The notes under the pieces: generated by a model
The model's input: only the letters and a program-made list of their open reading frames with translations
Told to the model about the DNA's origin: nothing
Databases searched by the model: none
In this document: positions 11,341 to 56,639 of the stretch, one piece after another
How positions within the stretch are numbered: the first letter of the stretch is position 1
Layout of the letters: each line of letters begins with the position of its first letter
Source: Candidatus Muiribacterium halophilum
GTDB taxonomy: Bacteria > Muiribacteriota > Muiribacteriia > Muiribacteriales > Muiribacteriaceae
Assembly: GCA_002869225.1 (NCBI GenBank)
Contig: PKTG01000107.1
Location: 9,623-73,622 of the forward strand
Reading direction: 5' to 3'
DNA length: 64,000 nt
Program-made: the position numbers and the translations under genes

Positions 11341-12176
11341 GAAAAAAAGGTTTTACATTGACCGAGGTTACAATAGTAGTAGCTGTGCTTGGTGTTTTTA
11401 CACTGGTACTTTTTAATCTACTTGCCATAATAAACAGATCTTCAAGTGTTGTTGAGTGGAGAACAGAAACAAATATGCAGCTTACTGAAGCTTTTAAAAT
11501 ACTTTCAAGAGATCTTGAACAGGCTAACTATCCAACAATAATAACTCAGGATGGAGTGTATAGGAATCCTATATCCCTGGGTGCTGGTGAATATAGACAG
11601 GGTGATCCATTACCGGAAAGCATACTTAGAGTGCACAAAGGAAGTGGTGAGGTCATAACTCTTCCAACTGGAGTGGATGAGATCACCGTTATGATGTGGC
11701 AGATAAATACTCCTGAAGTCAATATCGTGGGAAGAGGACATGCAGCAGAGACTACAGTATGTATTTTAAAACTATATAAAGAGTTTCAGAATAGATTAAA
11801 TGTACTTACATATAAAGTGATTGCTCCAGCAAATTATGATTATCTTGTATATTCCAATTCGCGAAGAATAAAAAACAATACTGAGATACCAATTATAGAG
11901 AATGTAAAAAGTATCGAGGTATCATATGATAAAAAGTATAGTGATGAACAGATAAATGCTTTTAATGAGATAAAGACAAATCCTGGAAACTTCCTGCCAG
12001 AAGAAAATAAGGATTATTTTCATGAATGGATGAACCCAGGCGTGCTTGGAGTCAAAGTAATAGTTGAGCAATCCAGAAAAATGGGCGTCCTTATGAGGAA
12101 AAGAGAGTTCAGAGTAAATGGAGAATTCATTATAGATCCACTTAGTGTTATCATGGAAAGGGTAAATAATTTTTAA
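11331..12176 (+). CDS. prepilin-type N-terminal cleavage/methylation domain protein
   Basis: Canonical KKGFTLTEVTIVVAVLGV motif. Confidence 0.75.
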   Translation: MEIRKKGFTLTEVTIVVAVLGVFTLVLFNLLAIINRSSSVVEWRTETNMQLTEAFKILSRDLEQANYPTIITQDGVYRNPISLGAGEYRQGDPLPESILRVHKGSGEVITLPTGVDEITVMMWQINTPEVNIVGRGHAAETTVCILKLYKEFQNRLNVLTYKVIAPANYDYLVYSNSRRIKNNTEIPIIENVKSIEVSYDKKYSDEQINAFNEIKTNPGNFLPEENKDYFHEWMNPGVLGVKVIVEQSRKMGVLMRKREFRVNGEFIIDPLSVIMERVNNF

Positions 12177-13018
12177 TGGAAATAAACAAAAGGTATCTTG
12201 AAAGATTACTTGAAACCGCAATAGATGAGGATATAGCATTTTCAGGAGATATTACTTCTGAAAATATCTTTGAACGATCTCATATTTCAAAAGGTAGATT
12301 TATCTCAAAAGAAGAAGGAATATTCTGTGGAGAAGAAATACTAAGATACATATTTAAAAATAAAGTAAAAGATGGCGAGATAGAAATAAAAAAGAAAGAT
12401 GGAGAATATCTTCAAAAAGGTGATATCATTGCCAAAGTCAAAGGTAATACAAAAGATATTCTTTTATTTGAAAGAACATGTTTAAATATTATTTGCCATA
12501 TGTCTGGTATAGCCAACAAGACGATGAGATTAGTTAAAGCTTTGAATAGAGCTGATATAAGAGTGGTTGATACAAGGAAGACCCTTCAAGGATTAAGAGC
12601 ATTACAAAAATATGCTGTTAAGATTGGAGGAGGATACAATCACAGAAGCGGATTGTATGATGCTGTTATGATAAAAGAAAATCATATTAAAGCTGCTGGA
12701 TCAATAAAAGAAGCTGTATAGAAGGTTAGAAGGAACGTATCTCATGTGATAAAGATAGAAGTTGAGACAACTGATCTTAAGGAAGTTCATGAAGCGGTAG
12801 AAGCCGGAGCTGATATAATTATGCTTGATAATATGGAACATGAACAGATGAGTCAGGCCTGTATTATAATCAACAGAAGAGCATTGATTGAGATTAGTGG
12901 TAATATAAGTGATGATAATATAAAGGAAAGAGTAAAAGAACTTCCAGTGGATATTATATCAAGTGGAGCTTTGACACATTCTGTTAAGGTATTTGATATA
13001 TCTTTTTTATTAGATTGA
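12176..13018 (+). pseudogene. nadC: nicotinate-nucleotide pyrophosphorylase (quinolinate phosphoribosyltransferase) with one in-frame TAG (12719-12721)
   Basis: ORFs 12176-12721 and 12746-13018 share a frame. The combined 280 aa is the canonical NadC length. KENHIKAAGSIKEAV-stop-KVRR..IKIEVETTDL..AGADIIMLDNM spans the stop. Confidence 0.85.
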
Positions 13019-16620: not shown

Positions 16621-17616
16621 ATGAAAAGATTTTTTGTAATATACATTATTTTTATATTCATATTCATGGCAATAGCGGATTCTACCGTCCATGATATGTA
16701 TCAGACTGCAGAAGAATATTATAAAGAGGGAATGATATAAAATTCCATTTCTCTACTTTAAAAAGTCATTCTTCAGGACCCTACCTTTATTAGTGCTTAT
16801 TATCTTTTAGGTAAGATTTACAAAGAGATAAATGAGTACGATAAGGCTATGTCATATTTTGAAAAGTGTATTGAGTTAAGACAGGATCTTAGAAATCGCG
16901 AAAAATCACTTGAAGAGAGTGGAATACCAAAGGTCAAGGTAGAGATGAGTGATGTTCTTAAAAAGATTGGAGAAGCTGAAGAGATACTCAGTCAGGGTAT
17001 AAGATTTGTAGAGGAAGGTGATTTTCTGTCTGCTGAGAACAGTTTTAAATATGCGATAGATCTAAACCCTAATGTTGCAGAATATTATTTTAGATTAGCG
17101 GATGTGTATCTTGATAGACAACTCGATGATATGGCTATAAGTACTTTAAAAAAAGGTCTGAGAATAGATACAAAAAATACTGACAGATATATACTACTTG
17201 CATCTTTATATTCAAAAAGCGGAGATGACAGGAAAGCTGTTCATCTTCTAAAGACAGCAGCTACTGATCATTTTAACGATAATCTTAAATTTAGAGATCT
17301 TATAAAGAGGTACTCTGCCAATATTATGGATAGAAGGGATTATACTGTAATAAGAAGAGATGGTAGAGAAGTTATAATAAATGCAGGGTTTAGAGATGGT
17401 ATAAAAAGAGGTATGGAATTCAGGACTCATCTGACTGTTTATAGGGGAGGCACTCCTGTGAAAGATCTAAATACAGGTGAGATACTTGGACAGACTGAAA
17501 GAAAGGTCATAGGAGAGTTGCTAATAACTAAGGTCGAAGAAAAACTCACTTATGGTCAGATAACTATTGAAAAAGAAGATAAGATTAGGATAGGGGATTT
17601 TATTTCAATTGAGTAA
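16621..17616 (+). pseudogene. TPR-repeat protein with N-terminal membrane anchor; two in-frame TAA (16738-16740, 16759-16761)
   Basis: ATG 16621 is in the same frame as ORF 16849-17616. MKRFFVIYIIFIFIFMAIA anchor. The first TPR unit reads YYKEGMI-stop-NSISLL-stop-KVILQDP..AYYLLGKIY and continues into the called ORF. Confidence 0.65.
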
Positions 17617-18055
17617 GCAAACTGATCTTAATATAAAAAATAAAAAAGCGTTTCATGAATATATAATTCTCGATAGATATGAAGCTGGTATAGCCTTAAA
17701 AGGTCCTGAAATCAAATCTGTCAGGCAGCATAATGTTAATTTTAGAGACAGCCATGTCAGAATACAGGGAAATGATGTCTTTTTAATAAATCTTCATATA
17801 GCAAGGTATAAAAACTCGGGATATTCGCAGATAGACCCTTCAAGAAACAGAAGACTTCTTTTAAATAAACGAGAGATTAGAAAGCTAAGTATTAGAGTTA
17901 TAGAAAGAGGCTTGACAATAGTTCCGTTAAGGTTGTATTTTAAGAATGGTCTTCTTAAAGTTGAGATAGGTCTTGCAAAAGGTAAGAAGATACATGATAA
18001 AAGAGAGACAATAAAAAAGAAGGAACTTGTTAGAGAATGGCAAAGAAAGCAATAA
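17609..18055 (+). CDS. smpB: SsrA-binding protein
   Basis: KNKKAFHEYIILDRYEAGIALKGPEIKSVR and a basic C-terminal tail. Confidence 0.9.
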   Translation: MSKQTDLNIKNKKAFHEYIILDRYEAGIALKGPEIKSVRQHNVNFRDSHVRIQGNDVFLINLHIARYKNSGYSQIDPSRNRRLLLNKREIRKLSIRVIERGLTIVPLRLYFKNGLLKVEIGLAKGKKIHDKRETIKKKELVREWQRKQ

Positions 18056-19590
18056 TACTTATATATATATTTACCTTTATGATCTTTTCCTTCTCAATAA
18101 ATAGTATATCAGTTCAGGTAAACGATATTACTTTTAAGGGAAATATTGACGGGGATATAGTATACCTTCCACTTACCGATGTATGTAAAGAATTCGATAT
18201 AAAGTTTGGTTTTTTTCCTGACACAAATATCATAGCTATCAACTTTCAGAATAAGATGATGAGTACCGTCGTGGATCAGAAAGAACTTATAGTAAATAAT
18301 GAGATAAGTGAACTTGAAAATCCACCAATTCTTATCAATTCCGAAGTCTATATGCCTATTGAGTTCTTCTCAAAATATCTGGAGTTGGATATATCATGGA
18401 AACCTGAAGAGATCTCAAAGAGTTCTGTTATAAGTGAACTTGTATTCAGGGAAAGTCCAGATGTTCTTGAAATATTTATTAAAGCCGATAAATCTTTTTC
18501 AAAGAACGAATATTTTGTGATACAGGATAAAAGAGATCTTATAATAAGTTTTCCTAATACTAAGATCGATTTAGAAGGTTTTGAATATCCTCATGATTAT
18601 ATTGAAGATGTAAATTATTTGAACGAAAAGCAGGAGACTGCTCAACTAACTATCAGATTTAAAAACAATCTTGACATTCAGTTGGGTCCTTCTGTAAAGC
18701 CAGCTGGGATGTATATTAGAGTAAATATATCTGATGTTCAGAAAACGCTTCCAGAAAATCGTGATGTATTGGATACTTCTGAGATCATTTCCTATAGAGA
18801 GCCAGGTTCTATTGAAGTATCTGCTTCAGAGATTCCCCTGATCTCAACGACTGAAGTTGCATCAGTGATCAGTTTAGACAGTCAGGAGACATATGAGGTA
18901 GAGGATTCATATATAGAAGAAGTTCCAGATATTGAACTTCAGCAATATACTTTTGTTGAGGAAACCTCTGAAAATATACTTGAGAATAAAGTCATCGTAA
19001 TCGATCCTGGCCATGGTGGTTCGGATTATGGTATTACCAAATTCGGTATATATGAAAAAGATATCGTACTTTCGATAGGAAGAAAACTTTTTGATAAGTT
19101 GTCTGAAGGGGATGCGTCAGTATTTCTGACAAGAAAGGGAAACGAGAATCTTACAGATGAAAAAAGGTCATATGTGGCAAATAGTAATAGGGCACAATTG
19201 TTTTTATCCTTGCATCTTGCTTTTAGCAGAGATGAAAAGATATCAGGATTTTCAATCTATTATTCTCCACAGTCTGAAAATGATCTAAAAGATAAACAGG
19301 ATTCGATGGAAGAACTAAAAAATATAAAAAGATATGATGATAGTATTAAATTTTAAAGACTCGTTAGCAGACACTTCGTGGACGATCTTGGTTTTATAGA
19401 TAGAAATATATTGCAGGCACCTATATCTGTTTTAAGAGATGTAAACTGTCCTTCTATATTACTTGAACTAAATCATTTATCAAATATGGAAATAGCACAG
19501 CTTTTAAAGGAAGATGATATACAGGATAAAATAGCCGATACTTTATATAAGGCTATTGAATCATATTTCATGAGAAAGAGAGCAAGATGA
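18037..19590 (+). pseudogene. N-acetylmuramoyl-L-alanine amidase (AmiC-like, AMIN plus Amidase_3) with one in-frame TAA (19354-19356)
   Basis: ORFs 18037-19356 and 19378-19590 share a frame. VIVIDPGHGGSDYG and ANSNRAQLFLSLHL lie before the stop. APISVLRDVNCPSILLELNHLSN lies after it. Confidence 0.8.
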
Positions 19591-20311: not shown

Positions 20312-20980
20312 ATGTACAAAGAAAACCCTGCATTTAATATCAAGGACTGTGCTCTTGTTGCTATAGCTACAGGTAAGAAAGCACATAATCTTAGAGAATT
20401 AAAGGATATCATTTCAACTATAGACGAGGGAAGTGTCTATTATCATTTTTGGGGAATGCTTCTTAAACCAAGATTTTTAAATAGGGAATATAACAATGAG
20501 TTTGCTATGTGGGTTAAAAGATCATTACATGATTCAGTTCTTGCAGAACGACTGGCAGTAATAGATCCTACTGATTATGATACATTAGAGGAACTTAGAA
20601 CTGAAGTTATTGATACAATAGAGGAAAGACTTGATGAGAATGAGTGGATAAACTTTGTTAAGCCTCATAGGAGATTTCATTTTATCCGTTCACATATTGT
20701 TGTGTTTGATACCCATACAACAATAGAAAGTCCTGAACAGCTTGTGGATATAATACCAAATATGTCAACTGGATCAATTTTTTATCATTTTATAGATGCA
20801 AGAGGAAGAGGTCATCAGAATGAGGATGATTTCAGACAGTGGCTTTCAGGTTTTGGAGAGGATCTAAAACCGCTTTGTGATAAGATAGCCGGACTAGATC
20901 CTTATTTTGTCTCTCCTCATACATTAAGAGATCAACTGGATGAGATCTTTACCGAATTTTTCAGAGGGGAGGTCAAATAA
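20312..20980 (+). CDS. conserved hypothetical protein coupled to treT
   Basis: GGGAGG RBS. One-nucleotide stop/start overlap with treT. No motif I can name with certainty. Confidence 0.5.
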   Translation: MYKENPAFNIKDCALVAIATGKKAHNLRELKDIISTIDEGSVYYHFWGMLLKPRFLNREYNNEFAMWVKRSLHDSVLAERLAVIDPTDYDTLEELRTEVIDTIEERLDENEWINFVKPHRRFHFIRSHIVVFDTHTTIESPEQLVDIIPNMSTGSIFYHFIDARGRGHQNEDDFRQWLSGFGEDLKPLCDKIAGLDPYFVSPHTLRDQLDEIFTEFFRGEVK

Positions 20981-22221
20981 TGAAAAAATTAAATCTATAT
21001 AGAGATATTGTTGGAGAGGATATAATCAATCAGCTAAAACAACTTGCTGAACCTCTCAAAGGAATAAAAGTCGTACATGTCAACTCAACAAAATTAGGCG
21101 GAGGTGTTGCTGAGATCCTTCATAAACTCCTTCCACTTAAAGAAGAGCTTGGGATAAAAGCTTCATGGGAAGTTGTTACAGGTGAATCCGAGTTTTATAA
21201 TTGTACAAAGAATTTTCATAATGGTCTTCAGGGAAATGCCGTTCCGGTCGATCAGAGACTCTTAAGAATATATGAACAGACAAACGCAGAAAACGCTGAC
21301 AGATTAAGAGAAAAATTAGCAGATGCTGATATTGTCTTTATACATGACCCGCAGCCTGCTATGCTTCTTCATTATATTCCTGAAAGAAAAGGAAAATGGT
21401 TATGGAGATGTCATATTGATGCAAGCAGACCTTTTAGACCGATTTGGAAATATCTTAGATCAAAAGTAGAGGGGTATGATGCAAGTATTTTCTCACTTGC
21501 AGATTTTGCTCAGCATCTTCCAAATACACAGTATCTTATACTTCCAAGTATAGATCCTCTTAGTGAAAAGAACATAGAGCTTGAAGAAAAAGAAATAGAT
21601 TCTATATGTGAAAAGTATAATATAGATCGTGAAAGACCAATGATGTCACAGATATCAAGGTTTGATCGTTTTAAAGATCCAATCGGTGTTATAAAAGCAT
21701 TTAAGCTGGCAAAAAAATTCACACCAGGACTTCAACTGGTACTGGCAGGTGGTGGAGCTACTGACGATCCTGAAGGTGAAGCAGTACTGAACGAGGTAAG
21801 AGCTGCTGCAGATGGTGATCCGGATGTAAACATTCTTCTATTGCCACCTGATGCTCATAGGATAATAAATGCGATTCAAAGAGCTTCTGATATTGTCCTC
21901 CAAAAATCTGTAAAAGAAGGGTTTGGACTTACAGTTACAGAAGGAATGTGGAAGGGTAAACCTCTTATTGGTGGTGATACAGGTGGAATTAGACTACAAG
22001 TAATAAATCATCATACTGGATTTCTAGTAAATTCTCCTGAAGGAGCAGCACTTAGAATAAGATATCTTTTCAATCATCGTGATAAGATGATTGAAATTGG
22101 AAATAATGCAAGAGAATTTGTTAGAGAGAATTTTCTTATTACAAGACATCTTAGAGAGTATCTTACTCTTATGCTTGCAATGTTACATTATCAGGATAAG
22201 GGTAGAATAGAGCTTAGTTGA
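20980..22221 (+). CDS. treT: trehalose glycosyltransferring synthase (TreT-type GT4)
   Basis: Long collinear similarity to TreT as I recall it: VHVNSTKLGGGVAEILH, TKNFHNGLQGN, WLWRCHID, PSIDPLSEKN, DDPEG, EGFGLTVTEGMWKGKP. Confidence 0.85.
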   Translation: MKKLNLYRDIVGEDIINQLKQLAEPLKGIKVVHVNSTKLGGGVAEILHKLLPLKEELGIKASWEVVTGESEFYNCTKNFHNGLQGNAVPVDQRLLRIYEQTNAENADRLREKLADADIVFIHDPQPAMLLHYIPERKGKWLWRCHIDASRPFRPIWKYLRSKVEGYDASIFSLADFAQHLPNTQYLILPSIDPLSEKNIELEEKEIDSICEKYNIDRERPMMSQISRFDRFKDPIGVIKAFKLAKKFTPGLQLVLAGGGATDDPEGEAVLNEVRAAADGDPDVNILLLPPDAHRIINAIQRASDIVLQKSVKEGFGLTVTEGMWKGKPLIGGDTGGIRLQVINHHTGFLVNSPEGAALRIRYLFNHRDKMIEIGNNAREFVRENFLITRHLREYLTLMLAMLHYQDKGRIELS

Positions 22222-22994
22222 TGTTCTTTTTTTGTGATGAAGAACAAATAAAAAATAATATACTTAGATCAAAAGAAAAGCAGAAGGTGTATTTCTTTGA
22301 TTATGATGGTACTTTATCACCGTTTGTCAAAGAAAGGCATAAAGCTTTTATGTATAAAGAGCTTATACCTTTTCTAAATAAACTTATTAGAAAAAATCAG
22401 GGGAAGGTATTCATCATAACAGGAAGAAGTATCGATTCAATATTACCACTACTTGATGATATTTATCCTATCCCTGAAATATGGGGAAGCCACGGTAACG
22501 AAAGGTATATTGATGGCAAATTGGAAAGATTGACTACTTCAAATGAAGATGTCCTTAAAAAATTATACAGTTTTATTATGGAAAAAGGGCTTGAGAATCA
22601 TTGTGAGAGGAAAGTCATATCTGTAACTCTTCATAAAAGAGGGCTTACTAAATCAGATATTCAATATATCGATTCTGTTAAAGATATTATCAAAAGAAGA
22701 TTTCCAGAAATTGATGTAAATAATTTTGATGGAGGATATGAATTTCTTATTGATAATAAAAATAAAGGCGATGCGGTTAGGGAAATATTGGATAGTTTTA
22801 AAGAAGACGTATTTCCTGTTTATTTTGGAGATGACCTTACAGATGAAGATGCTTTTAAAGAGATCAGAGATAAGGGACTGGGTGTTCTTGTAAGAAAAGA
22901 TAAAAGAGAAACTAATGCTCATGTGTGGGTTACCCCCCCCCATGGTATAGTTGAGATGTTTAAGGAGGTCTTATGTCCGAAGGAAGACTTATAA
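22218..22994 (+). CDS. otsB: trehalose-6-phosphate phosphatase (HAD family)
   Basis: FFDYDGTL motif I, ITGRS, and GDDLTDEDAF motif IV. Confidence 0.85.
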   Translation: MMFFFCDEEQIKNNILRSKEKQKVYFFDYDGTLSPFVKERHKAFMYKELIPFLNKLIRKNQGKVFIITGRSIDSILPLLDDIYPIPEIWGSHGNERYIDGKLERLTTSNEDVLKKLYSFIMEKGLENHCERKVISVTLHKRGLTKSDIQYIDSVKDIIKRRFPEIDVNNFDGGYEFLIDNKNKGDAVREILDSFKEDVFPVYFGDDLTDEDAFKEIRDKGLGVLVRKDKRETNAHVWVTPPHGIVEMFKEVLCPKEDL

Positions 22995-24409
22995 TAGCTT
23001 CTAACAGATTACCTATAGTCATTAAAAAAGAAAATGAAAAAGATTTTTCAATGACTCCTGGAAAATGAGGACTTGTTACAGCAATGGCTCCTGTCTTAAG
23101 AGACAGAGGTGGCATCTGGCTCGGATGGCCTGGAATAACTGATGAGGATAATATTAGTGATAAAAAGTTAAAAGAACTTATGGAAAAAGGTATAAAGGAT
23201 AGTGGTTATGATCTGGAACCCATAATCTTTTCTCATGAAGAAGCTGAAAAATATTATGAAGGTTTTTCAAATGAGATAATTTGGCCATTATTTCATGATC
23301 TTCCATCTCTTTGTAATTTCAAAGAGGAATACTGGAATATATATAAGGATGTAAACGAAAGATTTGCCAGTAAATTGACTGAAAAAGCTAAACCCGAGGA
23401 TTTTATATGGGTACATGATTATCATCTGATAAATGTTGCGACAAGATTAAGAAAAAGATCGCTGACAAATAAGATAGGATTTTTTCTGCATATTCCTTTT
23501 CCTCCGCTTGATGTCTTTTTAAAATTACCTTGGAGAAGGGAGATACTTCAGAGCCTTTTAGATTATGACCTGATAGGATTTCAGACACAAAGAGATAAAA
23601 GAAACTTTCTTCAATGTGTTCGTAGAGTGCTTAGATTTAGAGTTCAGGCAAGAGGAACAAAAAACATGGTCTATATAAAAAATCATAACAGAAAGGTCAG
23701 TGTAGCAGCTTTCCCTATTAGTATAGATTATGATAGTTTTGCAGAAGGTGCAGAGTCTGAAAACGTAGCAAAAAGAGCATGGTTTCTGCATGAAAACCTT
23801 CCAAATAGAACTCTGATTCTCGGGATAGATAGATTGGATTATACTAAAGGGATACCTTTTAAATTAAAAGCTTTTAAAAGAGCACTTGAAAAATATCCTG
23901 AACTACATAAAAATATTTCACTGGTTCAGATACTGGTACCTTCAAGAGTGCATATACCTAAATATAGGGAATTAAAGGAGAATATCGAAAAGCTTGTTGG
24001 AGAGATAAACGGAAAATTCACTGAACTTGGTTGGGTACCTGTATATTATATATTTAGATCGATGACAAGAGAAGAACTTTTAGCTTATTACCGGACTTCA
24101 GAGATAGCTTTTGTAACTCCGCTAAAAGATGGAATGAATCTGGTGGTAAAGGAGTTTTGTGCAAGTAATATTGAGGAGACTGGAGTTGTCATACTTTCCG
24201 AGTTTGCTGGTGCTGCTGCACAACTCGGTGAAGATTCTATCCTAGTTAATCCGTATGATGTAGAAAGAACAGCCGATGCTATATACAATGCTTTTACCAG
24301 TGATTATACATATAGAAAAAGAAGGATGAGAAAATTAAGACGATCTATTAAAAAATATGATATCTTCTGGTGGGTAAATGAATTTTTGGAATATGGAAAA
24401 GAAGAATAG
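22973..24409 (+). pseudogene. otsA: alpha,alpha-trehalose-phosphate synthase (GT20) with one in-frame TGA (23066-23068)
   Basis: ATG 22973 (GGAGG RBS) is in the same frame as ORF 23084-24409. MSEGRLIIASNRLP..TPGK-stop-GLVTAMAPVLRDRGGIWLGWPG matches the N-terminal GT20 signature. The total of 478 aa is canonical. Confidence 0.85.
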
Positions 24410-24502: not shown

Positions 24503-25648
24503 TTAAAAATCAAATTTCTTTGTAGTAGAGAACCTGTGAATATCACCAAGTTCCTGCTCAGCAAATGCATATTCAAATGACCATTCGCCGCGTACAAAAG
24601 ACATACCAGCTGAAAGATCACCGTCGTGTGAACCTAATCTAAATGCGAATATATCGTTAAACCATTTTTCTACACCTAGATAAAGTTCTGCATCCATGTT
24701 TTCTACTTTGTTGTAATCCATTGCTACAAGCCAAGTTGGCTCAGGTACATAAGCTACACCAAGTGTTGTATCTACAGGTACTTTATCCTTTCTTCCACTT
24801 GGAGTGTCCCATTTCAGTTCGTTCATAAGGTTTCTGACTGAAAATCCGAATGATACTTTTGATGAGTAATCATATAAAAGACCGAGATCAAGTCCAATAC
24901 TATTTGCATCAGCATTGTATAGACTCTGAGTCATATATTTCATGTTTGCACCAAAATATAATCTATCAAAAGCCTTTGAGTATGAGAAGTAATAAGCGTT
25001 CTCACTATCATCAAAGTTTGAAAAGATCTTTACCGGATCAGCTGCTGGATTATATCCAACATTAACATCAGTATAAACCGCAGTTGTTGTCGGATCAGCC
25101 TGATAAACAGCTTCTACCTGTTCTCTAGACCAGCTTGTTGAATATCCTACAGGAACCGCAGGTGCACTTCCATCTGCCCATGTTCCTGTTGATGTGACTG
25201 GTATCGCTTTAGCAGTACCGGTAGCTGTATCATAATAATAGATAGGTGTGCCGTATATCTGGTCAGAAGCTAATGCTCCACCTCCGTTAAATCTCCATAC
25301 TCTGGTCTCAGGTATGTTATCTACACCAAATCTTACCATTGCAAAACCATAAGCTTCATTCTTTGTCTCATTCTTTTTTACATAGTTTATGAAATCAAAG
25401 TTTCTATCCATCTTAAGTCTTGCATGCATGAACGAGGCCTGATTCTTTTTGAGTTTGGCAAGGCCAGCTGGATTCCAATAGGAAGCAGTCGCATCATCGG
25501 ATACGGCTACAATTGCTCCACCCATACCAAGAGCTCTTGCACCTACTCCCATTCTAAGGTATGCACCTGCCTGACCGGAACCTTCTCCGGCAGCGAATGC
25601 GAATACGCAAAGTGTCAGGAGTCCTAGCACTATACCTAGTTTTTTCAT
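24503..25648 (-). CDS. outer-membrane beta-barrel protein (PorV/FadL-like)
   Basis: Signal peptide from ATG 25648 (GAGGTG RBS). ARALGMGGA..DDATASYWNPAGLA motif. C-terminal ..KKFDF. Confidence 0.6.
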   Translation of the reverse strand: MKKLGIVLGLLTLCVFAFAAGEGSGQAGAYLRMGVGARALGMGGAIVAVSDDATASYWNPAGLAKLKKNQASFMHARLKMDRNFDFINYVKKNETKNEAYGFAMVRFGVDNIPETRVWRFNGGGALASDQIYGTPIYYYDTATGTAKAIPVTSTGTWADGSAPAVPVGYSTSWSREQVEAVYQADPTTTAVYTDVNVGYNPAADPVKIFSNFDDSENAYYFSYSKAFDRLYFGANMKYMTQSLYNADANSIGLDLGLLYDYSSKVSFGFSVRNLMNELKWDTPSGRKDKVPVDTTLGVAYVPEPTWLVAMDYNKVENMDAELYLGVEKWFNDIFAFRLGSHDGDLSAGMSFVRGEWSFEYAFAEQELGDIHRFSTTKKFDF

Positions 25649-25711
25649 ATTACACCTCGCTTTTTCTTTTATCAATAAACATATTATACATCATTTCTCT
25701 TATGTTATAAA

Positions 25712-27166
25712 CTACTGCTTACTTGCTGTTACACCAAAGTTAGCTATATTATTAGCACCTTTTACAATAGTCACCTCTAGTTCTGCAGGAGCAAGCTGAG
25801 CTGCTACTGAAGCACCACCTGATGCAGTATAACCCGTAGCTGCACCGTTTATCTTTCTTTTTCCGATTGGTACATCATTGATTATAGCTGTTCCTGAAGT
25901 GTTTGCATAGTTTATTGAGATAGTCGCGTTATCTGAACTACCTGTTGCATAACCTACAAAGTCAACCCTATCATTAGTGTTCCAAGCTACTGTTGCAGAA
26001 CCCCATGATACACCAACGTTTACAGTTACATCACCTTTTTTAAGAGTGATCTCAAAAGGTGTCGCAAGTGAATAAGATTTGTTTGTAGTCTTCAAGGTAG
26101 CATTAAATGTCTGTGTAGGAGCATTTCCATCTATGAATGCTGAGAAAATGTCCATTCTACTGTATGCTACTCCATTATCACTAATTGGTAGATTATCAAA
26201 TGTAACAAGTCCACCATCTTCTACTTTCTTTGTAAGATATGGAGCACCATCTCTATAAAGGGTAGCAAATATTGGGGTATCAGTGAAATCTATAGCTATA
26301 CCTTCAGCAGACTGTACGAGAGCAGTTATAGTTCCTCCATCTTCCATCTGTGGTTCAAGAGAATCTTTTTCAAGATATATATCTTTTCTTACAGTATCAC
26401 CAGGAACAAGGAAGATCTCTGAGTTAGATCCATTTCCAGTTACTTCGGCTGATGAACCAGTAGTCTCAAGTGGTTTATAAATATTTGGATAATCGTTAGC
26501 AGGATAACATGAGATCTTATAACCCTGTGGCTCGATTGGTACTGAGGATATAAAATAATATCCATTTGTATCGGTTACCGCACTGAATGCTACAGAACTA
26601 TCTGAGTTCTGAATAACAACAGTAGAATTTGCTAGAGGTGTTGATGCTCCACCGCCATTAGGGTCGATTCCTCTAACATATCCTGATATGCTTCCAGTTG
26701 CAGGATTTGGATTATTTTTCATAAATAATTTAACAAAATAATCCTGTCCATCTTCAACTGTGATTCTTTTGTAAGCTCTGTCAGCAACCGCATCAGCTCT
26801 TCTTGGAGCTCCACCAGTAGCCTGTTCCTGTGTAGTCATAGCTTCATTAATATAACCTGATGCTTCTGAATATACATCATAAACTACATTTGGTGGAAGA
26901 TCTTCAAATACATAAGTATTTCCGTTTCCATTAGGTGTTGAAAATTGTCTGTGAAGAGAAGCACTTGAGTTTCCACCTTCACTTGATGATTCAATACCTA
27001 CAAGAGCATTAGTTATAATGCTTTCTGACTGATCTACCATTTCTACTACCTGTACTCTTACTGACCCACTAGTTACTCCAGCGGATCCACATCCAGCTAG
27101 CAGGAAGGTAACCATAAGCATGGCTGTAAGAAGTGCCAGCTTTTTAATCAGTTTTCTCCTGTTCAT
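25712..27166 (-). CDS. large lipoprotein with repeated carboxypeptidase-regulatory-like domains
   Basis: Lipobox LLAGC after MNRRKLIKK (GGAGGAG RBS at ATG 27166). TDTNGYYFISSVP-type beta-sandwich signatures. Confidence 0.6.
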   Translation of the reverse strand: MNRRKLIKKLALLTAMLMVTFLLAGCGSAGVTSGSVRVQVVEMVDQSESIITNALVGIESSSEGGNSSASLHRQFSTPNGNGNTYVFEDLPPNVVYDVYSEASGYINEAMTTQEQATGGAPRRADAVADRAYKRITVEDGQDYFVKLFMKNNPNPATGSISGYVRGIDPNGGGASTPLANSTVVIQNSDSSVAFSAVTDTNGYYFISSVPIEPQGYKISCYPANDYPNIYKPLETTGSSAEVTGNGSNSEIFLVPGDTVRKDIYLEKDSLEPQMEDGGTITALVQSAEGIAIDFTDTPIFATLYRDGAPYLTKKVEDGGLVTFDNLPISDNGVAYSRMDIFSAFIDGNAPTQTFNATLKTTNKSYSLATPFEITLKKGDVTVNVGVSWGSATVAWNTNDRVDFVGYATGSSDNATISINYANTSGTAIINDVPIGKRKINGAATGYTASGGASVAAQLAPAELEVTIVKGANNIANFGVTASKQ

Positions 27167-27525: not shown

Positions 27526-28629
27526 ATGATAGCATATGGAGTTGATGAAGTACTGGAAAATCGAAAACATCTAATTAAGGGTGTTCCGATCATTTTAATA
27601 ACCCATTACTATATAAAGGATTCAAATAAGGAGTCTGTTGCTGAGTTGTTTTATCAGGATCCGGAGATTAATCTTTCAAAGATAGTTTGTCCTAAATTTG
27701 GCTTTTTTCTTGATTCTAATACGACTGAAGATTTTGAAGGAATACCAGTTGAGTTTTTTAATATAGAGGATTTTAAAAAATCTCTTAAAAATATCCGCAC
27801 AGTTGTATTTGATCTTCAGGATACAGGAGTTAAGAACTCTCCTATACTTATCATGCTATTTGATATAATGAAAATATTAAATGATGTTGATGTAAACTTT
27901 TTGGTCCTTGATAGACCCAATCCTTTAAACAGTATTTCCTATGCAGGTATTATAGGACCTCTTGACGAGAAAAGACTGCCTCTCAGACATGGTATGACTA
28001 TTGGTGAACTTGCGAGTTATTTTAAATCACAGTTCTTTATAAGTACAAGGTTAAACGTAATTAAGATGATAAATTACGATAGGGAAGAGACTATATACGA
28101 TATAGAAGCTGGCGATAATCCATATTTGCCCGGTATAAGAAACAGAGATAGTCTTTGCCTATATTCTTTTTTACATCTTTTCACTTCAATGAATATCTCT
28201 GTAGGGCTTTGAAGTGATGTTGAATTTCTTGTGTTTGGTGCTCCATGGATCGATCCTGATATAGTATTTGATCAGATCATAATGATGGGTTTTGATGGAT
28301 TTTCTATGGAGACCTGTTCATTTACTCCAAGAGTCGGAATCTATTCTTCCACTGAATGTCACGGTATAAGGTTTAGGATAAATGATCTTTCTATGTTTGA
28401 TCCTATAGAACTCTTCTTAAATATAACAGAGATCTTATACTCATCATTTGGTGAGATAGAATTTCTTATGGATGAAGATGGGATTTATTTAATTGATTCT
28501 TTTTTTTCTGATGAGAGGATCAGAATAACAATAGAGAGATATATTCCAGCAACAAATGCTTATTATAAAGCGATGTCTACAATGGAGAGTTTTATTCCGG
28601 CAAGGCAAGAGGTACTTTTATATTCATGA
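27526..28629 (+). pseudogene. DUF1343 / NamZ-like exo-N-acetylmuramidase with one in-frame TGA (28210-28212)
   Basis: ORFs 27526-28212 and 28231-28629 share a frame. FDLQDTGV and VLDRPNPLN lie before the stop. NISVGL-stop-SDVEFLVFGAPWI spans it. Confidence 0.8.
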
Positions 28630-30092
28630 ATATAAATTCTTTTTTTGAAGAAAAACTCATATATCCATTATTTGATAATAAAAAAGAAGTTCTTTTTCAG
28701 GCTTTTTTTTATATTGATCATTATAATGCAAGACTCTTTGATATTACTCCAGCAAGACTCTCAGGGCCAGGAGAAATAAAATCCTGTATAACTGAGATCA
28801 AAAAAAGAAGACCGGATTCAATTGTTTTTCTAAGACACGGTACGGGTGGGCAGGAGACTATTAAGAAAAACATTGACATGACTCCTTCAAACAGAGCTTT
28901 AGGTCTAATTGATGAAAAAAAATCTGCTTTTGACAGCGGACTTATTATTGCAAAAGAACTAAAAAGTATTGGAATTGATATAATAATAAGTGATTTTCTT
29001 GGGATTAACATCAACAAGGAAAATCCAATAATAGGTGTTAGATCATTTTCAGATGATCCAAATAAGGTGTCGGAATTTGCGAAAGAATATAAAAAAGGCA
29101 TAGAAAAAGGTGGATTAAAACTGGTAGCATGTGGATTTCCTGGAAAAGGCGCTCTTTCATATTATCATAAGGATAAGATCACGACTTATAAAAGAGATCT
29201 TGATTCTATGTATATGGATGAACTGATTCCTTATGTGAATATAATTAAAGAACACATGGAAATGATAGAACTATCAGATCTATATTATTTTCTTGAGAGT
29301 AACACTGTACATGAACCAGCTACTCTATCATCATCTGTAATAGATTATTTAAGAAAACCACTTTCATATAGTGGAAAGATAATATCATTTCCTATATATA
29401 ATGAAAATTTTTCTTCCTACGAAGGTCTGAATCTTTTAAGAAGATGTATTGAAGCTGGTTGTGATATTGTATATCTTCCTGGTAATCTGAAAAAGAATAT
29501 AGAGATATTGGATAATATTAAAGTCTTATTCTCTACAGGAAGATTTCAATTTCAGGTAGACTTTAATAAATTAAAAACTGATTCAACAACAAATGAAGAG
29601 TCTTTATATTATATTAAGAAAAAAAACTCTCATCTGCTTGAGAAGATCGAGGATAGCATAGCTTTAAGATTGGAGAGCAAAGATTTTGAAACTCTTTCTG
29701 ATGTAATAGAACCATTTGTTGTTGTTCCAAAACAAAGTGATGATAAAGAAGAAAAAGAGAATTACTTTTTTAAAAGTATAAAATATTACAAAAGAAAATC
29801 AAAGATGATCGAGTACTCATATAAGAACAGTGAAGAGTGGTTTGAAAAAACAATTAAAAAGCTAAAAGACAAAGAAGTAATAATAATATCTGAAGGAGTA
29901 TATTCAAATAAACATCTACAGGATCTGTTTTTAAAAATAATAAAGAACGCTTCTTCCGCCCATGTTATTGGAGTAAGTGTTGAATACGAGGAAGATATTT
30001 TTTCTGAGGATACCCCTTATTTTTGTATAGGTACTTCACTTGAATCTACTTTTAAAAGAGTGGTTAAAGAGATATTTAAAAACCGTTATTGA
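28626..30092 (+). CDS. divergent glycoside hydrolase family 3 (NagZ-like) domain protein
   Basis: IAKELKSIGIDI..IGVRSFSDDP..GFPGKG resembles the GH3 N-terminal region, with the KHFPGHG motif degenerate. Confidence 0.5.
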   Translation: MNINSFFEEKLIYPLFDNKKEVLFQAFFYIDHYNARLFDITPARLSGPGEIKSCITEIKKRRPDSIVFLRHGTGGQETIKKNIDMTPSNRALGLIDEKKSAFDSGLIIAKELKSIGIDIIISDFLGININKENPIIGVRSFSDDPNKVSEFAKEYKKGIEKGGLKLVACGFPGKGALSYYHKDKITTYKRDLDSMYMDELIPYVNIIKEHMEMIELSDLYYFLESNTVHEPATLSSSVIDYLRKPLSYSGKIISFPIYNENFSSYEGLNLLRRCIEAGCDIVYLPGNLKKNIEILDNIKVLFSTGRFQFQVDFNKLKTDSTTNEESLYYIKKKNSHLLEKIEDSIALRLESKDFETLSDVIEPFVVVPKQSDDKEEKENYFFKSIKYYKRKSKMIEYSYKNSEEWFEKTIKKLKDKEVIIISEGVYSNKHLQDLFLKIIKNASSAHVIGVSVEYEEDIFSEDTPYFCIGTSLESTFKRVVKEIFKNRY

Positions 30093-38392: not shown

Positions 38393-39745
38393 ATGAGTAC
38401 TTTTCTTTTAAAGAACATCTTTTTACCGAATGGAGATGAATTTAAAAAATGTGATCTTTTATTTAATGAAAAGATACTGGAGATCTCAGATGAAATTAAA
38501 TCAAAAAGCGAATATAAGATATTAGATTGTGATGGTTTTTATGCTATGCCTGGTTTTATTGATTCGCATGTTCATTTTAATACTCCGGGGTTTGAAAATC
38601 ACGAGACTTTTGAGAAAGGCTCTAGAAGTGCAATAAAAGGTGGAGTGACTTCTATTATAGATATGCCTTGTACATCGCTTCCACCGATAGTATCTAAAGA
38701 AGCTTTTTATGAAAAATTAAAAGTCATAAAAGATCAGGCTTACTGTGATTTTGCTTTTCATGGCGGAGTTGAGGCAACATTTTTTCAGGATGATGCTAAC
38801 CTGCGTAAGAATTTTGAAGAGATGATAGTTGCTGGAATCAAAGCGGTTAAGATATATACAGTATCAGGTATGGAGACCTTTAAGGAGCTTTCAAACAATC
38901 AGATGTTCGAAGTGTTTACGACTGCAGCTGAAATGAACCTTCCTGTAATGGTGCATGCTGAGGACCCATCGTTTGTCAGAGAACGAGAAGAAGAGATGAA
39001 AAAACAGAAAAGAAAAGACCCTAAGTCCTATGCATATTCAAGAAGTGTAGAGGCTGAACTTGTTGCTATTAACACCTGTGGTATACTTTCAAACCTTACG
39101 GGTGCAAGAGTACATATTGTTCATATTAGTAGTTATAAAGGAGTGCAGTTAGTCAAGATGTGGAGAGAACAGGGAGCAAAGATATCATGTGAGACCTGCC
39201 CACATTATATGGCTTTTGATATTTCAAGTCTAGAAAGAATGGGTGGTATATTAAAGACTGCACCTGTGGTGAAGAGTGAAAATGATTCAGAAGGATTATG
39301 GAAGGCATTTTCTCAAGGGGATATAAGTTTTATAACAACCGATCATGCGCCATGTGATCTTGAGACTGAGAAGAACACCGGCTCTATATGGACTGATTAT
39401 GGTGGAATACCTGGTGTTGAGACAATTTATAGTTATATTATTTCTGAAGGATTGCTTAAGGATAGGATAAGCCTTTCTGTGCTTACAGATAGTATAAAAA
39501 GAAGTGCATCATTATTTTCCCTGAATGACAAAGGAGAACTATTGCCAGGGAAGGATGCTGATATAACTATATGGGACTTTGATCACAAACATGAGGTCAA
39601 AGCAAAAGAGTTTGAAAGTACAGGTAAATACTCACCTTTTGATAAATGGATATTTTCATGTTCTTTAAAACGGGTCTTTTTAAGAGGAGAACTTGTAGTT
39701 GAAGATGAAAATATCCTCCAAAGGAAAGGGAAATATATCAAATGA
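38393..39745 (+). CDS. cyclic amidohydrolase (allantoinase / dihydroorotase / hydantoinase family)
   Basis: GFIDSHVHF metal motif, VHAED, HIVHISS, TTDHAPC. Confidence 0.8.
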   Translation: MSTFLLKNIFLPNGDEFKKCDLLFNEKILEISDEIKSKSEYKILDCDGFYAMPGFIDSHVHFNTPGFENHETFEKGSRSAIKGGVTSIIDMPCTSLPPIVSKEAFYEKLKVIKDQAYCDFAFHGGVEATFFQDDANLRKNFEEMIVAGIKAVKIYTVSGMETFKELSNNQMFEVFTTAAEMNLPVMVHAEDPSFVREREEEMKKQKRKDPKSYAYSRSVEAELVAINTCGILSNLTGARVHIVHISSYKGVQLVKMWREQGAKISCETCPHYMAFDISSLERMGGILKTAPVVKSENDSEGLWKAFSQGDISFITTDHAPCDLETEKNTGSIWTDYGGIPGVETIYSYIISEGLLKDRISLSVLTDSIKRSASLFSLNDKGELLPGKDADITIWDFDHKHEVKAKEFESTGKYSPFDKWIFSCSLKRVFLRGELVVEDENILQRKGKYIK

Positions 39746-40143
39746 ATGAGATGATAGAAAGAGGGAAAGTTTTTTTAAAGGGAAAAAGAATTGCTGTTAT
39801 CGGAGCAAAACAAAAAAAAGAAAAATGGGGTTATAAGATATACGATCTTCTTAAAAGTAAAGGATATAAGGTCTTTGGAGTAAATCCAAATGTAGATAAC
39901 ATAGATGGCGATAAAGTATACGACAGTCTAAGTAAGATAGATTCAAAAATAGATGGATTAGTATTAATAGTAAGTCCTGCTATTGGAATGAGCCTAAGTA
40001 AAGAGATCATAGATAAAAAGATCTCTATGGTTTGGATGCAACCGGGAGCCCAGTCAGATGAGCTTATAAGTGAGTTCGAGAAGAACAACATAATGACAGT
40101 TCACGATAATTGTATCAAGGTGCATTTGACTAGTTATAATTAA
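39742..40143 (+). CDS. CoA-binding domain protein (YccU-like)
   Basis: KRIAVIGAKQKKEKWGYKIY..GYKVFGVNP pattern. 133 aa. Confidence 0.7.
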   Translation: MNEMIERGKVFLKGKRIAVIGAKQKKEKWGYKIYDLLKSKGYKVFGVNPNVDNIDGDKVYDSLSKIDSKIDGLVLIVSPAIGMSLSKEIIDKKISMVWMQPGAQSDELISEFEKNNIMTVHDNCIKVHLTSYN

Positions 40144-42990: not shown

Positions 42991-43851
42991 ATGGAAGTTT
43001 CTGTAGTAGTACCAGTATATAACGAACAGCATATGATTAAAGAGACTATTGACACTATAAAAGAATCCTTCAAAGGTTCAGAAATAAGATATGAGATAAT
43101 AGCTGTAGAGGATGGAAGCTCAGATGATACCTGGGAAGTCCTTTCAGCAATCGAAGACATAATAATCATTAGAAATAAAAAGAACTCAGGTTATGGTTAT
43201 TCAATAAAAAAAGGCATGAAGGTCGCAAAATATAAAAATATATTTATAACAGATGCTGACGGTACTTATCCAAATGAAAGAATGCCTGAATTTGTTCGTT
43301 ATTTTCACGATAATAATCTTGATATGCTTGTTGGAAGAAGGGATAGAAAAAACATTCCTCTTATAAGAAGACCACCTAAAGCTTTTTTAAGAAAATTTGC
43401 CTCATATATCTCGGGATTTGATATTCCAGATCTTAACTCAGGATTTAGGATGTTCAGGAAGGATTATGCTATAGCTTTTTCAAAAATGCTTCCAGATGGT
43501 TTTTCTTTGACATCCACTATAACATTATCCTTTTTTTCTGAGAAACTGGATATTGATTATGTACCTATTAAATATGGTAAACGTGAGGGGAAATCAAAGA
43601 TTCGTCCTATAAAAGATACAATGGCTTTCTTTCATCTAATATGGAAGACTGTATTTTATTTCAATCCTTTGAAGATATTCCTCCCATTATCTATACTTCT
43701 TTTCCTATCAGCTTTGGGAATATTCTCTTATTCATTTTTTAAGCTTGAAAAAGTAATGGATATAACAACGATAGTCCTACTTCTTACATCGGTACAGATA
43801 TTTTGCATAGGACTTGTAGCAGATCTTATAGTAAAAAGAGGAAATATATGA
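42991..43851 (+). CDS. family 2 glycosyltransferase (polyprenyl-phosphate sugar transferase-like) with C-terminal TM helices
   Basis: VVVPVYNE, AVEDGSSD, and DAD motif (ITDADG). GGAGGA RBS before ATG 42991. Confidence 0.8.
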   Translation: MEVSVVVPVYNEQHMIKETIDTIKESFKGSEIRYEIIAVEDGSSDDTWEVLSAIEDIIIIRNKKNSGYGYSIKKGMKVAKYKNIFITDADGTYPNERMPEFVRYFHDNNLDMLVGRRDRKNIPLIRRPPKAFLRKFASYISGFDIPDLNSGFRMFRKDYAIAFSKMLPDGFSLTSTITLSFFSEKLDIDYVPIKYGKREGKSKIRPIKDTMAFFHLIWKTVFYFNPLKIFLPLSILLFLSALGIFSYSFFKLEKVMDITTIVLLLTSVQIFCIGLVADLIVKRGNI

Positions 43852-45269
43852 AAGTACTTCTAGTAAATCAACCTGATACAGAGGTAATACTTGCTAATAA
43901 TCCGGAGATACTTGAAGAGGAAAGAGGATATAACCCTCCACTTGGAATACTATATGTAGCCGGTGCTTTAAAGCAGGCTGGAATAGATGTGGAAGTTCTT
44001 GATGCGCAGGTTGAAAGATTGGATTATGAGCAGCTTGAAAATAGAATAAGATAAAACAAACCAGATGCAGTTGGTATGACTCTAATGACATTTACTATAT
44101 TTGATGTCATAAAGACAGCAAAAGTCGTTAGAAAGATCGACAAGAATATAAAAATAGTCCTTGGTGGTCCACATGTATTTATTTATCCTGAAGAGACGCT
44201 TTTACAGGATTGGGTTGATATTATACAGATAGGCGAAGGAGAGAAAAATACTCCTGAGCTTTTTAAAAATATTAAAGATCTAGAAAAACTGAAAACAATT
44301 CATGGTGTAGGAATAAAAAATGAGGATGGTACATTTCAGATAAATCCTCCTGATGAAGCTATAAAGGATCTTGATGATCTTCCATTCCCGGCAAGAGAAC
44401 TTACACCTATTCAAAAATATTCATCTGTTATAGCTAAAAGAAATCCCATAACGACTATGTTTACAAGTAGAGGCTGTCCTTATAAATGTCTTTTCTGCAA
44501 TCGACCGCATCTTGGAAAGACATTCAGAGCCCGTAGTGCTGAGAATGTAATAGAAGAGTTTAAAGTGTGTTTTGATCTTGGAATAAGAGAGTTTTTAATA
44601 TACGATGATACGTTCACAATTAACCGAGAAAGGGTTGTTGATTTCTGTGAACTTATGAAAAAGACTGGACTTAACACAAAAGTTGGTTTTGATATTAGAG
44701 CAAGAGTCAATACAGTTGATAGAGAACTTCTTATAATGCTTAAAGAAGCTGGATGTGAAAGAATACATTACGGTGTAGAGTCTGGTACTGAAAAGATATT
44801 AAAAGTCCTTAGAAAAGGTATTACACTTAATCAGGCAAGAGAAGTCTTTAAGATAACCAAAGAGGTTGGGATATCAACACTTGCTTATTTTATGATAGGT
44901 TCTCCGACTGAGACAGAAGAAGATGTTGAGAAGACCATTGATTTTGCTCTTGAACTTGATCCTGATTTTGTACATGTTACAATAACTAGTCCATTTCCTG
45001 ATACTCCATTATATGCAATGGCGCTTGAAGAAAATGTAATAAAAAGGGATGTTTGGAGAGAGTTTGCTAAAAACCCAACAAAAGATTTTGTAGCACCGCA
45101 TTGGAATAGAGAACTTTCGGATGAGACTTTGCATAGACTGATTAAAAAAGCTTATAAAAAATTCTATATGAGACCTGGTTATATCATAAGAAGACTTCTT
45201 GACTTGAGATCATTTTCAGAGTTTATGAGAAAAGCCAAAGCAGGTATAAAGGTGTTCCTGTTAAAGTAA
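43848..45269 (+). pseudogene. B12-binding-domain radical SAM enzyme with one in-frame TAA (44052-44054)
   Basis: ATG 43848 and ORF 44076-45269 share a frame. ..ENRIR-stop-NKPDAVGMT..VLGGPH is the B12-binding fold. CPYKCLFC is the radical SAM cluster. Confidence 0.8.
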
Positions 45270-46210: not shown

Positions 46211-46984
46211 ATGATCAAAAATAAAATCGAACTTATAAATCGTACAAATTCACTTGTGCTTGATGCTGGAAGACTTGCACATGAGAGATTTATCAACAAT
46301 GATTTTAAAGTCTCTAGAAAAGAAGATAATTCTTTTCTGACTACATCCGATATCATGACAGAGGAATTTTTAAGGAAAGGTCTTTCGGATATTTATTCCT
46401 GTCCTATATTGGGTGAGGAAGAAGGACTTGATACGGAATCTTTAGATGACGAACTTTGGGTAATAGATCCTATTGATGGAACACATTCGTATTCAAACGG
46501 TCTTGCTCCATGGACTGTATGTGTTGCTTTGTTTGAAGATGGTAATCCTTTCTATGGAGCAGTTTATGCTCCTGCGCTTAATGAGTTTTATTATGGTGCG
46601 AAAGGTCATGGTAGCTTTTTTAATTATAAAAGGATACATTGTAAATATTTTCCATCTGATGAAAAGACTATATGCATTGATTCTAAGACTTTAAAAACTG
46701 GTATTGATCTAAAAAACTTAAAGAATGCGAAGATTCGCTCATATGGTTCAACAGCTCTTCATATAGTCCTGGCAGCTAGAAATGCAGTGCAGGCAAGTTA
46801 TACATTGCCTGTAAAGATATGTGATGTAGCAGCTGCACATTCTATAATAAGTGAAGCTGGTGGAGTGCTTTTATATGAAGATGGAAAAGTCATAGATTAT
46901 GATAGACTTTTTTCGGGAGAGTATCTGGAAAAACCAGTTATTTCAGGTAACATTGATAATCTGAAGATGTTATTTGATGTTTAG
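46211..46984 (+). CDS. inositol monophosphatase family phosphatase
   Basis: ILGEEEG, WVIDPIDGT, and a C-terminal ..DVAAAHSIISEAGG motif. Confidence 0.8.
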   Translation: MIKNKIELINRTNSLVLDAGRLAHERFINNDFKVSRKEDNSFLTTSDIMTEEFLRKGLSDIYSCPILGEEEGLDTESLDDELWVIDPIDGTHSYSNGLAPWTVCVALFEDGNPFYGAVYAPALNEFYYGAKGHGSFFNYKRIHCKYFPSDEKTICIDSKTLKTGIDLKNLKNAKIRSYGSTALHIVLAARNAVQASYTLPVKICDVAAAHSIISEAGGVLLYEDGKVIDYDRLFSGEYLEKPVISGNIDNLKMLFDV

Positions 46985-47063
46985 AAAAAGTAATTAGGGG
47001 GCAGGTTCCAGGGAAAAGGGATGGACTTGTTTAATCCTACCAATTGATGTAGAATCTTAAATT

Positions 47064-48005
47064 ATGAAGACAATAGGCATATCATTTCTGGACAGTTATC
47101 TGAAGAACTCAGAGTGTAACAATAAAAGATTTATTAAAGAACTTAGAAAGATATATTATTCAAGTCAACTTAATCTGGTCTTAGGGTCAGGAGTCTCGAA
47201 AGCAGCTGGTCTTCCGTTGTGGCCTCAACTCGTTAAAGAACTCTATATCGATGTCATAGTAAATAATTTTATGGAAGAGGAACCAGATTGGGAAAAACTC
47301 GATCTTAAGACAGATGAGCTTATTCTTCAAGCAAGATATATAAAAAAAGGTTATGGAGATCTTACAAAATTTGTTGAAGCAATAAGGAAAAATCTCTATA
47401 CCAGGGAAGTTGATGTTGATAATGATCTTATGCAGGCTATTGGAAGGTTATGTGTTCCTACAAGGGCAAGTCATCTGAAATCAATAATAACTTATAATTT
47501 TGACGATCTTCTTGAAAAAAAACTGGAGACTCTTAAAGTCGAATACAAAGGGATTTATGATTCGAATATTTGTTTTAATAAATCAGATCTTCCTATTTAT
47601 CATGTTCATGGATTTCTTCCGCAGGATTCTAAAGAGGTAACGACAAAGAACCTTATATTTAGCGATGATGATTATAATAAACAGGCGAGCGGAAAGATAT
47701 TCTCATGGTCTAATGTAATTCAACTTACCAGTTTCAAAGATTCCTGTAATCTATTCATTGGTGCTTCTTTTAATGATAGTAATCTTAGAAGGATACTTGA
47801 GATAGTTAAGAATAACTTTCAGGGTGTGGTTAACTATGCTATTCAGAAAAGATCTTTTGATTCAAAAAAACAGGATGAGAAAAATAGAAAATTCTGTCTT
47901 ATAAACGATTATCTTAAAGAAAATGTTTTGGATGAACTTGGAATAAAGATAATATGGGTTGATGATTTTTCGGAGATACCGGAGATTATAGAAAGTATAA
48001 AATAA
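47064..48005 (+). CDS. standalone SIR2-like (SIR2_2 family) protein, putative NAD-consuming enzyme
   Basis: LVLGSGVSKAAGLPLWPQL, ITYNFDDLLE, PIYHVHGF and LFIGASFNDSNLRRIL match the order of motifs in the ThsA/DSR-type SIR2 domain as I recall them. Confidence 0.65.
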   Translation: MKTIGISFLDSYLKNSECNNKRFIKELRKIYYSSQLNLVLGSGVSKAAGLPLWPQLVKELYIDVIVNNFMEEEPDWEKLDLKTDELILQARYIKKGYGDLTKFVEAIRKNLYTREVDVDNDLMQAIGRLCVPTRASHLKSIITYNFDDLLEKKLETLKVEYKGIYDSNICFNKSDLPIYHVHGFLPQDSKEVTTKNLIFSDDDYNKQASGKIFSWSNVIQLTSFKDSCNLFIGASFNDSNLRRILEIVKNNFQGVVNYAIQKRSFDSKKQDEKNRKFCLINDYLKENVLDELGIKIIWVDDFSEIPEIIESIK

Positions 48006-56636: not shown

Positions 56637-56639
56637 TAT

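Follow-up and report, generated by a model that had tools for sequence, protein, structure and literature searches.

The DNA analysed here, hereafter the window, is a continuous stretch of 64,000 nucleotides. The locus of interest comprises a gene interrupted by an in-frame TGA and the gene that follows it:

27526-28629, plus strand: gene of the NamZ/DUF1343 family, 367 aa, intact in other assemblies, with its own terminator TGA at 28627
28210-28212, plus strand: in-frame TGA, codon 229 of the NamZ homologue; GGA (Gly) in the other four assemblies
28626-30092, plus strand: GH3 (NagZ-like) gene with a GH3 N-terminal domain, its start overlapping the stop of the upstream NamZ homologue as ATGA

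The reading frame of the NamZ homologue runs from the ATG at 27526 to the TGA at 28627, and the TGA at 28210-28212 is its sole internal stop; the translation around this stop reads ...FTSMNISVGL(stop)SDVEFLVFGAPWIDPD. Two Pfam domains were matched significantly, namely NamZ_N (PF07075) at residues 23-190 (E = 1.3e-25, 90.5 bits, cut-off 26.9) and NamZ_C (PF20732) at residues 212-366 (E = 7.3e-18, 66.2 bits, cut-off 25). Codon 229 lies inside the NamZ_C match, and the homology continues across the stop. By domain architecture, the gene thus belongs to the NamZ/DUF1343 family, as the first-pass annotation had proposed. The C-terminus reads ...VLLYS before the TGA at 28627, and the homologues end with ...LLY at the same place. 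The position next to a GH3 (NagZ-like) gene also resembles the nagZ-ybbC gene arrangement of B. subtilis (PMC8054146).

The window belongs to an NCBI metagenome-assembled genome (MAG) of Candidatus Muiribacterium halophilum, for which the describing paper is reportedly Barnum et al. 2018. In its annotation, the NamZ homologue appears as two adjacent 'hypothetical proteins', C0601_09585 and C0601_09590, on an 84,284-bp contig. The first, PLX16718.1 (228 aa), is identical to the N-terminal piece of 228 aa, and the second, PLX16719.1 (132 aa), to the C-terminal piece of 132 aa. Since both pieces are in the NCBI record, the TGA at 28210 is present in the public sequence. Upstream, the run of plus-strand genes is interrupted at 24503-27166 by two minus-strand genes, one for a UPF0164-like protein that has a signal peptide and one for a CarboxypepD_reg-like repeat protein of 484 aa; this is the most GC-rich patch near the TGA (0.41, the window mean being 0.34).

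The stop falls on a conserved glycine of the NamZ family

The first-pass annotation had placed the stop on the second Gly of an N-x-S-E-G-R-G-T motif, and had suggested that an HMM or structure be aligned across it. The motif indeed proved to be the consensus of the family. Among the 119 homologues examined, the column counts were N 81, S 106, E 48 or V 39, G 118, R 106, G 118 and T 107. In the MAFFT alignment, the stop column is the second Gly of S-x-G-x-G-T, with Gly in 118 of the 119. The phmmer alignments likewise put the stop on the second Gly of two structures of NamZ/DUF1343 homologues, PDB 4k05 (SIGVGYT) and PDB 4jja (SLGRGTT). The column is therefore a highly conserved Gly column, and a non-Gly placement was not seen in these alignments. 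The first Gly of the motif, G227, is kept in the window copy, and the other assemblies encode G229 by GGA, so that the original codon was Gly, as the first-pass reading had held.

It is to be noted that, even in its intact form, the protein of this species has lost several of the family's near-invariant residues. The S-x-G-R-G-T segment is not kept in full, the Arg column (R in 106/119) being Leu and the Thr column (107/119) being Ser. In the P-E-H-G segment, the Glu column, where 95 of the 119 homologues have E and 18 have Q, is Lys here. The departures of the intact protein comprise P-K-F-G for P-E-H-G, R103K, Y105S, T106P, E220T and R228L. Its sole close relative, from another Muirbacterium MAG (P0002, 43% identity), shares most of these losses and has Ser in the Glu column. 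Over 60 highly conserved columns, the window copy keeps 40 and the intact P0002 keeps 38, and the intact copies found elsewhere differ from the window copy only at 28210 and at synonymous sites. The possibility that the NamZ homologue is a decaying pseudogene, raised by the odd residues near the motif, was therefore rejected: most of the losses are also present in the intact P0002 and the intact copies are near-identical to that of the window, which makes the divergence a trait of the lineage and not a decay linked to the stop.

What these departures mean for activity can be gauged from B. subtilis NamZ, in which Glu92 at the tip of strand beta-2 is the proposed catalytic residue and Arg279 is an exposed residue of the C-terminal domain (PMC8054146). 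Judged by sequence, the Glu of P-E-H-G would correspond to Glu92, and the Arg of S-E-G-R-G-T would probably be the equivalent of Arg279. Because near-invariant residues are missing, most of them also in P0002, it is doubtful that the homologue of this species is equivalent to NamZ as an exo-beta-N-acetylmuramidase; even when intact, the product of 27526-28629 (also found at L001:14554-15657) may not be an exo-muramidase. Overall, the likeness to NamZ/DUF1343 (B. subtilis YbbC) lies in the NamZ_N and NamZ_C domains, the GH3 neighbour and the G-x-G of S-x-G-x-G-T, whereas the lost near-invariant residues set the protein apart from the family consensus.

GGA at both TGA sites in four further assemblies of the population

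Four other assemblies contain the same region, namely JGI 3300007102, Logan SRR5894289, ENA ERZ794998 (218-kb contig, coverage 11.9) and ENA ERZ794999 (162-kb contig, coverage 18.1). All four have GGA at 28210 and at a second in-frame TGA of the window, which lies in a trehalose-6-phosphate synthase (OtsA) gene, and in all four both genes are intact. The contigs of JGI 3300007102 and Logan SRR5894289 are collinear with the window, with no indels, and their gene calls give a single NamZ homologue of 367 aa and a single OtsA of 478 aa. The protein cluster that holds the NCBI fragments of the NamZ homologue (P0001) also has an intact 367-aa member, with NCBI, JGI, Logan and ENA sources. When the OtsA sequence with Gly read through the TGA was used as query, an identical, uninterrupted protein of 478 aa (P0121, with Gly32) was retrieved from JGI, Logan and ENA.

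Several searches returned nothing. DNA-pattern scans around the TGA at 28210 gave no match in genome contigs or metagenome contigs, and the intact NamZ protein as query gave none in genome contigs. Exact-protein look-ups with the products of the window genes at 5647-7242, 44076-45269, 7625-8614 and 39742-40143 also found no match; these four failures are informative since the products carry changes private to the window. For three window-private missense alleles, the Logan, ENA and JGI assemblies had no record.

The assemblies also differ from one another by ordinary polymorphism. Between 45415 and 57293 there are 21 polymorphic sites, at which ERZ794998 and Logan SRR5894287 share one haplotype, and ERZ794999 and Logan SRR5894289 share another. 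Within this interval the window alternates between the two haplotypes, with roughly a dozen switches, and the JGI contig mixes them in another pattern. The contigs are therefore either chimeric consensus sequences from two or more co-existing strains, or products of strains that recombine; a haplotype mosaic as fine as that at 45.4-57.3 kb is typical of a mixed consensus. A Metallophos gene, called as 294 aa in ERZ794999 (L015:8744-9628) and as 367 aa in the others (L014:8744-9847), has identical DNA over the gene, and this difference in length is one of gene calling, not of sequence.

Ten premature stops in eight genes

The two TGAs are part of a larger set. Ten private changes were found to create premature stops in eight genes of the window, the original codon being Glu in five cases, Ser in three and GGA in two. 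Besides the TGA of the NamZ homologue, they are as follows (codon of the other assemblies > codon of the window):

4608-4610, plus strand: GAA>TAA, premature stop in a histidine-kinase gene (HisKA/HATPase_c, 589 aa), 3798-5567
4914-4916, plus strand: GAA>TAA, second premature stop of this HisKA/HATPase_c gene, 3798-5567
12719-12721, plus strand: GAG>TAG, premature stop in a QRPTase gene, 12176-13018
16738-16740, plus strand: GAA>TAA, premature stop in a TPR gene (331 aa), 16621-17616
16759-16761, plus strand: GAA>TAA, second premature stop of this TPR gene, 16621-17616, 21 bases downstream of that at 16738
19354-19356, plus strand: TCA>TAA, premature stop in an Amidase_3 gene (517 aa), 18037-19590
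23066-23068, plus strand: GGA>TGA, the in-frame TGA at codon 32 of OtsA, the gene for trehalose-6-phosphate synthase, 22973-24409; all four other assemblies have GGA
44052-44054, plus strand: TCA>TAA, premature stop in a B12-binding radical-SAM gene (473 aa), 43848-45269
63277-63279, plus strand: TCG>TAG, premature stop in FtsK, which starts at 62053 and is 755 aa in the other assemblies

Two of the genes are thus hit twice, the histidine kinase at 4608 and 4914 and the TPR gene at 16738 and 16759; the two stops of the TPR gene, 21 bases apart, are both G>T on one strand. The OtsA gene starts with the ATG at 22973, and its TGA is on the first Gly of a G-G-L loop, where all 120 homologues have Gly. 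It is the last gene of a compact trehalose cluster at 20312-24409, which holds DUF5752, a TreT-like GT1, a trehalose-phosphatase and OtsA (GT20); two trehalose routes lie next to each other here, plausibly for osmoprotection in a halophile.

Spectrum, context and effects of the window-private substitutions

Private differences were compared over the 62,331 of 64,000 bases that are covered by at least one other assembly. The window has 43, of which 36 are G:C>T:A (18 G>T and 18 C>A), and all four other assemblies keep G/C at these 36 sites. The share of G:C>T:A among the private differences of the others was 5/9 for JGI and 0/8, 0/6 and 0/1 for the rest (Fisher P = 1.3e-6), i.e., none of the 15 private changes of the ENA and Logan assemblies are of this class and the signature is present in weaker form in the JGI assembly. 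Among the polymorphisms common to several assemblies, 25 of 36 are transitions. A further G:C>T:A change lies outside the window: JGI 3300007102 has a C>A of its own at L005:19697, about 3.3 kb past the window end, where TCA>TAA splits a gene of the LuxE family into pieces of 147 aa and 224 aa, the gene being intact (374 aa) in both ENA assemblies.

The sequence context of the changes is also narrow, as 35 of the 36 are at a G with a 3' purine, where the background share is 59% (P = 1.6e-7). Guanine oxidises most readily as the 5' G of a GG or GA step, and G>T at such sites is the trace that oxidation to 8-oxoG would be expected to leave. In this G-purine context, only GAA, GAG, GGA, TCA and TCG can be turned into stops, and 21% of the possible coding changes give a stop. 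The coding effects observed were 10 nonsense, 17 missense and 6 synonymous, where 7.0, 22.1 and 3.9 are expected under no selection in the G-purine context. An excess of nonsense changes, considered under a uniform G:C>T:A model (10 observed, 4.4 expected, P = 0.009), was rejected, for it vanishes when the G-purine context is taken into account (7.0 expected, P = 0.14).

This context also bears on the argument that had been made from the two TGAs, namely that two of two in-frame TGAs on conserved Gly is unlikely for random nonsense mutations. The observation itself is sound, as both sites are conserved Gly columns (118/119 and 120/120), but the improbability is not, since every route to TGA starts from GGA. 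Among the changes possible in the window genes by G>T at G-purine sites, all 490 of 490 that create a TGA start from this codon. As G>T makes TGA from GGA alone, a score of 'two of two on Gly' is automatic, and the high conservation of both sites is unsurprising because Gly is often conserved. The number of TGAs is also as it should be, 20% of new stops being expected to be TGA and 2 of 10 being observed.

The density of the private G:C>T:A changes is about 1.8 per 1000 G:C sites, and their distribution is uneven. The interval 46823-62744 (15.9 kb), which includes MetRS and the fliE-fliJ flagellar genes, has zero private changes (P = 1.5e-4), while outside it there is about one private change per 1.1 kb of the window. 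The clean stretch could result from coverage or from a different assembly origin.

Origin of the substitutions

These results lead us to read the TGA at 28210 as a G>T replacement of GGA that is private to one assembly, and not as a recoded codon; we put the probability of this reading at roughly 0.9. The cause of the 36 G:C>T:A changes is in turn probably damage to, or an artefact of, that one assembly. In the organism itself, as the four other assemblies show, the NamZ-family gene is uninterrupted, encodes 367 aa and is followed by the GH3 gene. Guanine would have been oxidised to 8-oxoG, which pairs with A on copying and thereby gives G>T, and such copies would then have become the consensus of a single assembly, the NCBI MAG. 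The route to the consensus may have been a damaged or low-complexity library, or else the path of assembly or bin refinement.

The closest precedent is the work of Costello et al. 2013 (PMC3616734), in which 8-oxoG that formed while DNA was extracted, sheared or made into libraries gave rise to C>A/G>T artefacts, preferentially in the context CCG>CAG, i.e., a G followed by a G. The window changes share the main features of those artefacts: a near-exclusive substitution class that depends on the neighboring base (36/43 and 35/36, respectively), absence from independent assemblies, and no filtering by selection. They also differ, as the artefacts of that study were of low allele fraction and amenable to filtering at the level of reads (PMC3616734), whereas those of the window are fixed in a consensus contig. 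This difference speaks against the artefact explanation, since oxidation errors are usually of low allele fraction and could win a consensus only at very low coverage or library complexity. The rate of about 1.8 per 1000 G:C sites is also high for an artefact, and the eight truncated genes are all plausibly dispensable, as would be expected of a real lineage too.

The best-surviving alternative is that the stops are real nonsense mutations, carried by one strain of the perchlorate-reducing enrichment that had undergone heavy oxidative G>T mutagenesis, owing to a repair defect of the MutY/MutM type or to reactive chlorine or oxygen species. NamZ, OtsA and the other six genes of the window would then be fresh pseudogenes. 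The spectrum and the G-purine context fit guanine oxidation whether it took place in cells or in the tube, and the alleles did, after all, become the consensus of a deposited assembly. The substitution class, and the stops made from GAA, GAG, GGA and TCA, are those of G:C>T:A mutator lineages deficient in MutY/MutM. The truncated genes are plausibly non-essential, which applies to NamZ, OtsA (with the TreT gene adjoining), QRPTase and the amidase, and further to the kinase, the TPR protein, the radical-SAM protein and the C-terminal part of FtsK. The JGI assembly, with its weaker form of the same signature that includes the LuxE TCA>TAA stop, also speaks for this alternative.

Nonetheless, a real sub-lineage is the less likely of the two explanations, and we regard it as unlikely on its own terms. 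Truncation of 8 of about 59 genes is hard to square with a viable clone; scaled to the genome, hundreds of genes would be broken. Nonsense and missense changes are not depleted, so that there is no trace of selection in the coding effects. The uneven spread, with 15.9 kb free of changes, fits an effect of assembly or coverage better than it fits uniform mutagenesis. The private alleles that were tested have no record among the Logan, ENA and JGI assemblies, and the window is otherwise a mosaic of two haplotypes, as in a mixed consensus and not in one clone. Unselected truncations at this density, unevenly spread and missing from all the other assemblies, thus set the window apart from a viable mutator clone and favour oxidative damage or artefact as the cause.

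TGA as a sense codon, a rejected reading

The first-pass annotation had implied that TGA is read as Gly. Such a reading could be complete, as in genetic code 25, or ambiguous at some sites, and NamZ and OtsA would then be intact as they stand in the window. In code 25, used by candidate division SR1 and the Gracilibacteria, UGA is a frequent Gly codon and never a terminator. The window resembles such organisms in that both in-frame TGAs are on conserved Gly columns and that the DNA is that of an AT-rich (34% GC) uncultivated bacterium. The resemblance ends there. In the corrected gene set, TGA terminates 24 of the 59 genes, the NamZ homologue among them, with ends that match those of homologues, and nine gene pairs have ATGA overlaps. 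Internal TGAs number only 2 in about 19,000 codons, compared with about 1,190 standard Gly codons, and at both sites the population has GGA in the four other assemblies. TGA is therefore neither unused as a terminator nor common at Gly columns and stable across the lineage. In addition, eight equally private TAA and TAG stops at Glu and Ser codons, which the first-pass annotation had not counted, belong to the same single substitution class and would be left unexplained. No tRNA gene of any kind was found within the 64-kb window. On the strength of the terminator use, the GGA elsewhere, the near-absence of internal TGA from long reading frames and the eight TAA/TAG stops, the reading of TGA as Gly was rejected as highly improbable.

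Even more remote is a selenocysteine or a programmed read-through site at 28210: the TGA is in frame and the frame is otherwise open, but no Rfam family was matched at the gathering score anywhere in the window, neither a downstream SECIS nor a tRNA-Sec was found there, and the column, GGA in the other assemblies, is never Cys or Sec and has no TGA or TGC in any of the 119 homologues examined.

Implications

The candidate recoding event at 28210 is not real, and what it most closely resembles is an artefact of oxidative damage that has become fixed in a consensus. The case demonstrates that a pattern in which every in-frame TGA is on an invariant Gly can arise wholly from a biased G>T process. 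Stop-codon reassignments in MAGs should therefore be compared with other assemblies, and with premature TAA and TAG, before they are believed. It also means that a public MAG has about one premature stop per 6 kb in the region of the window, and that PLX16718.1/A0A2N5ZDH4 and PLX16719.1/A0A2N5ZDI6 are database halves of one gene.

There is a smaller chance, which we consider slight, that all 36 G>T changes are real and that a sub-population of Muiribacterium, with about 1 in 7 genes truncated by massive guanine oxidation in vivo, came to dominate one assembly. The source of such oxidation might be, for example, chlorite or hypochlorite from neighboring cells, or a defect of repair. If the changes were real in this way, the window would be a record of extreme oxidative mutagenesis in an enrichment culture.
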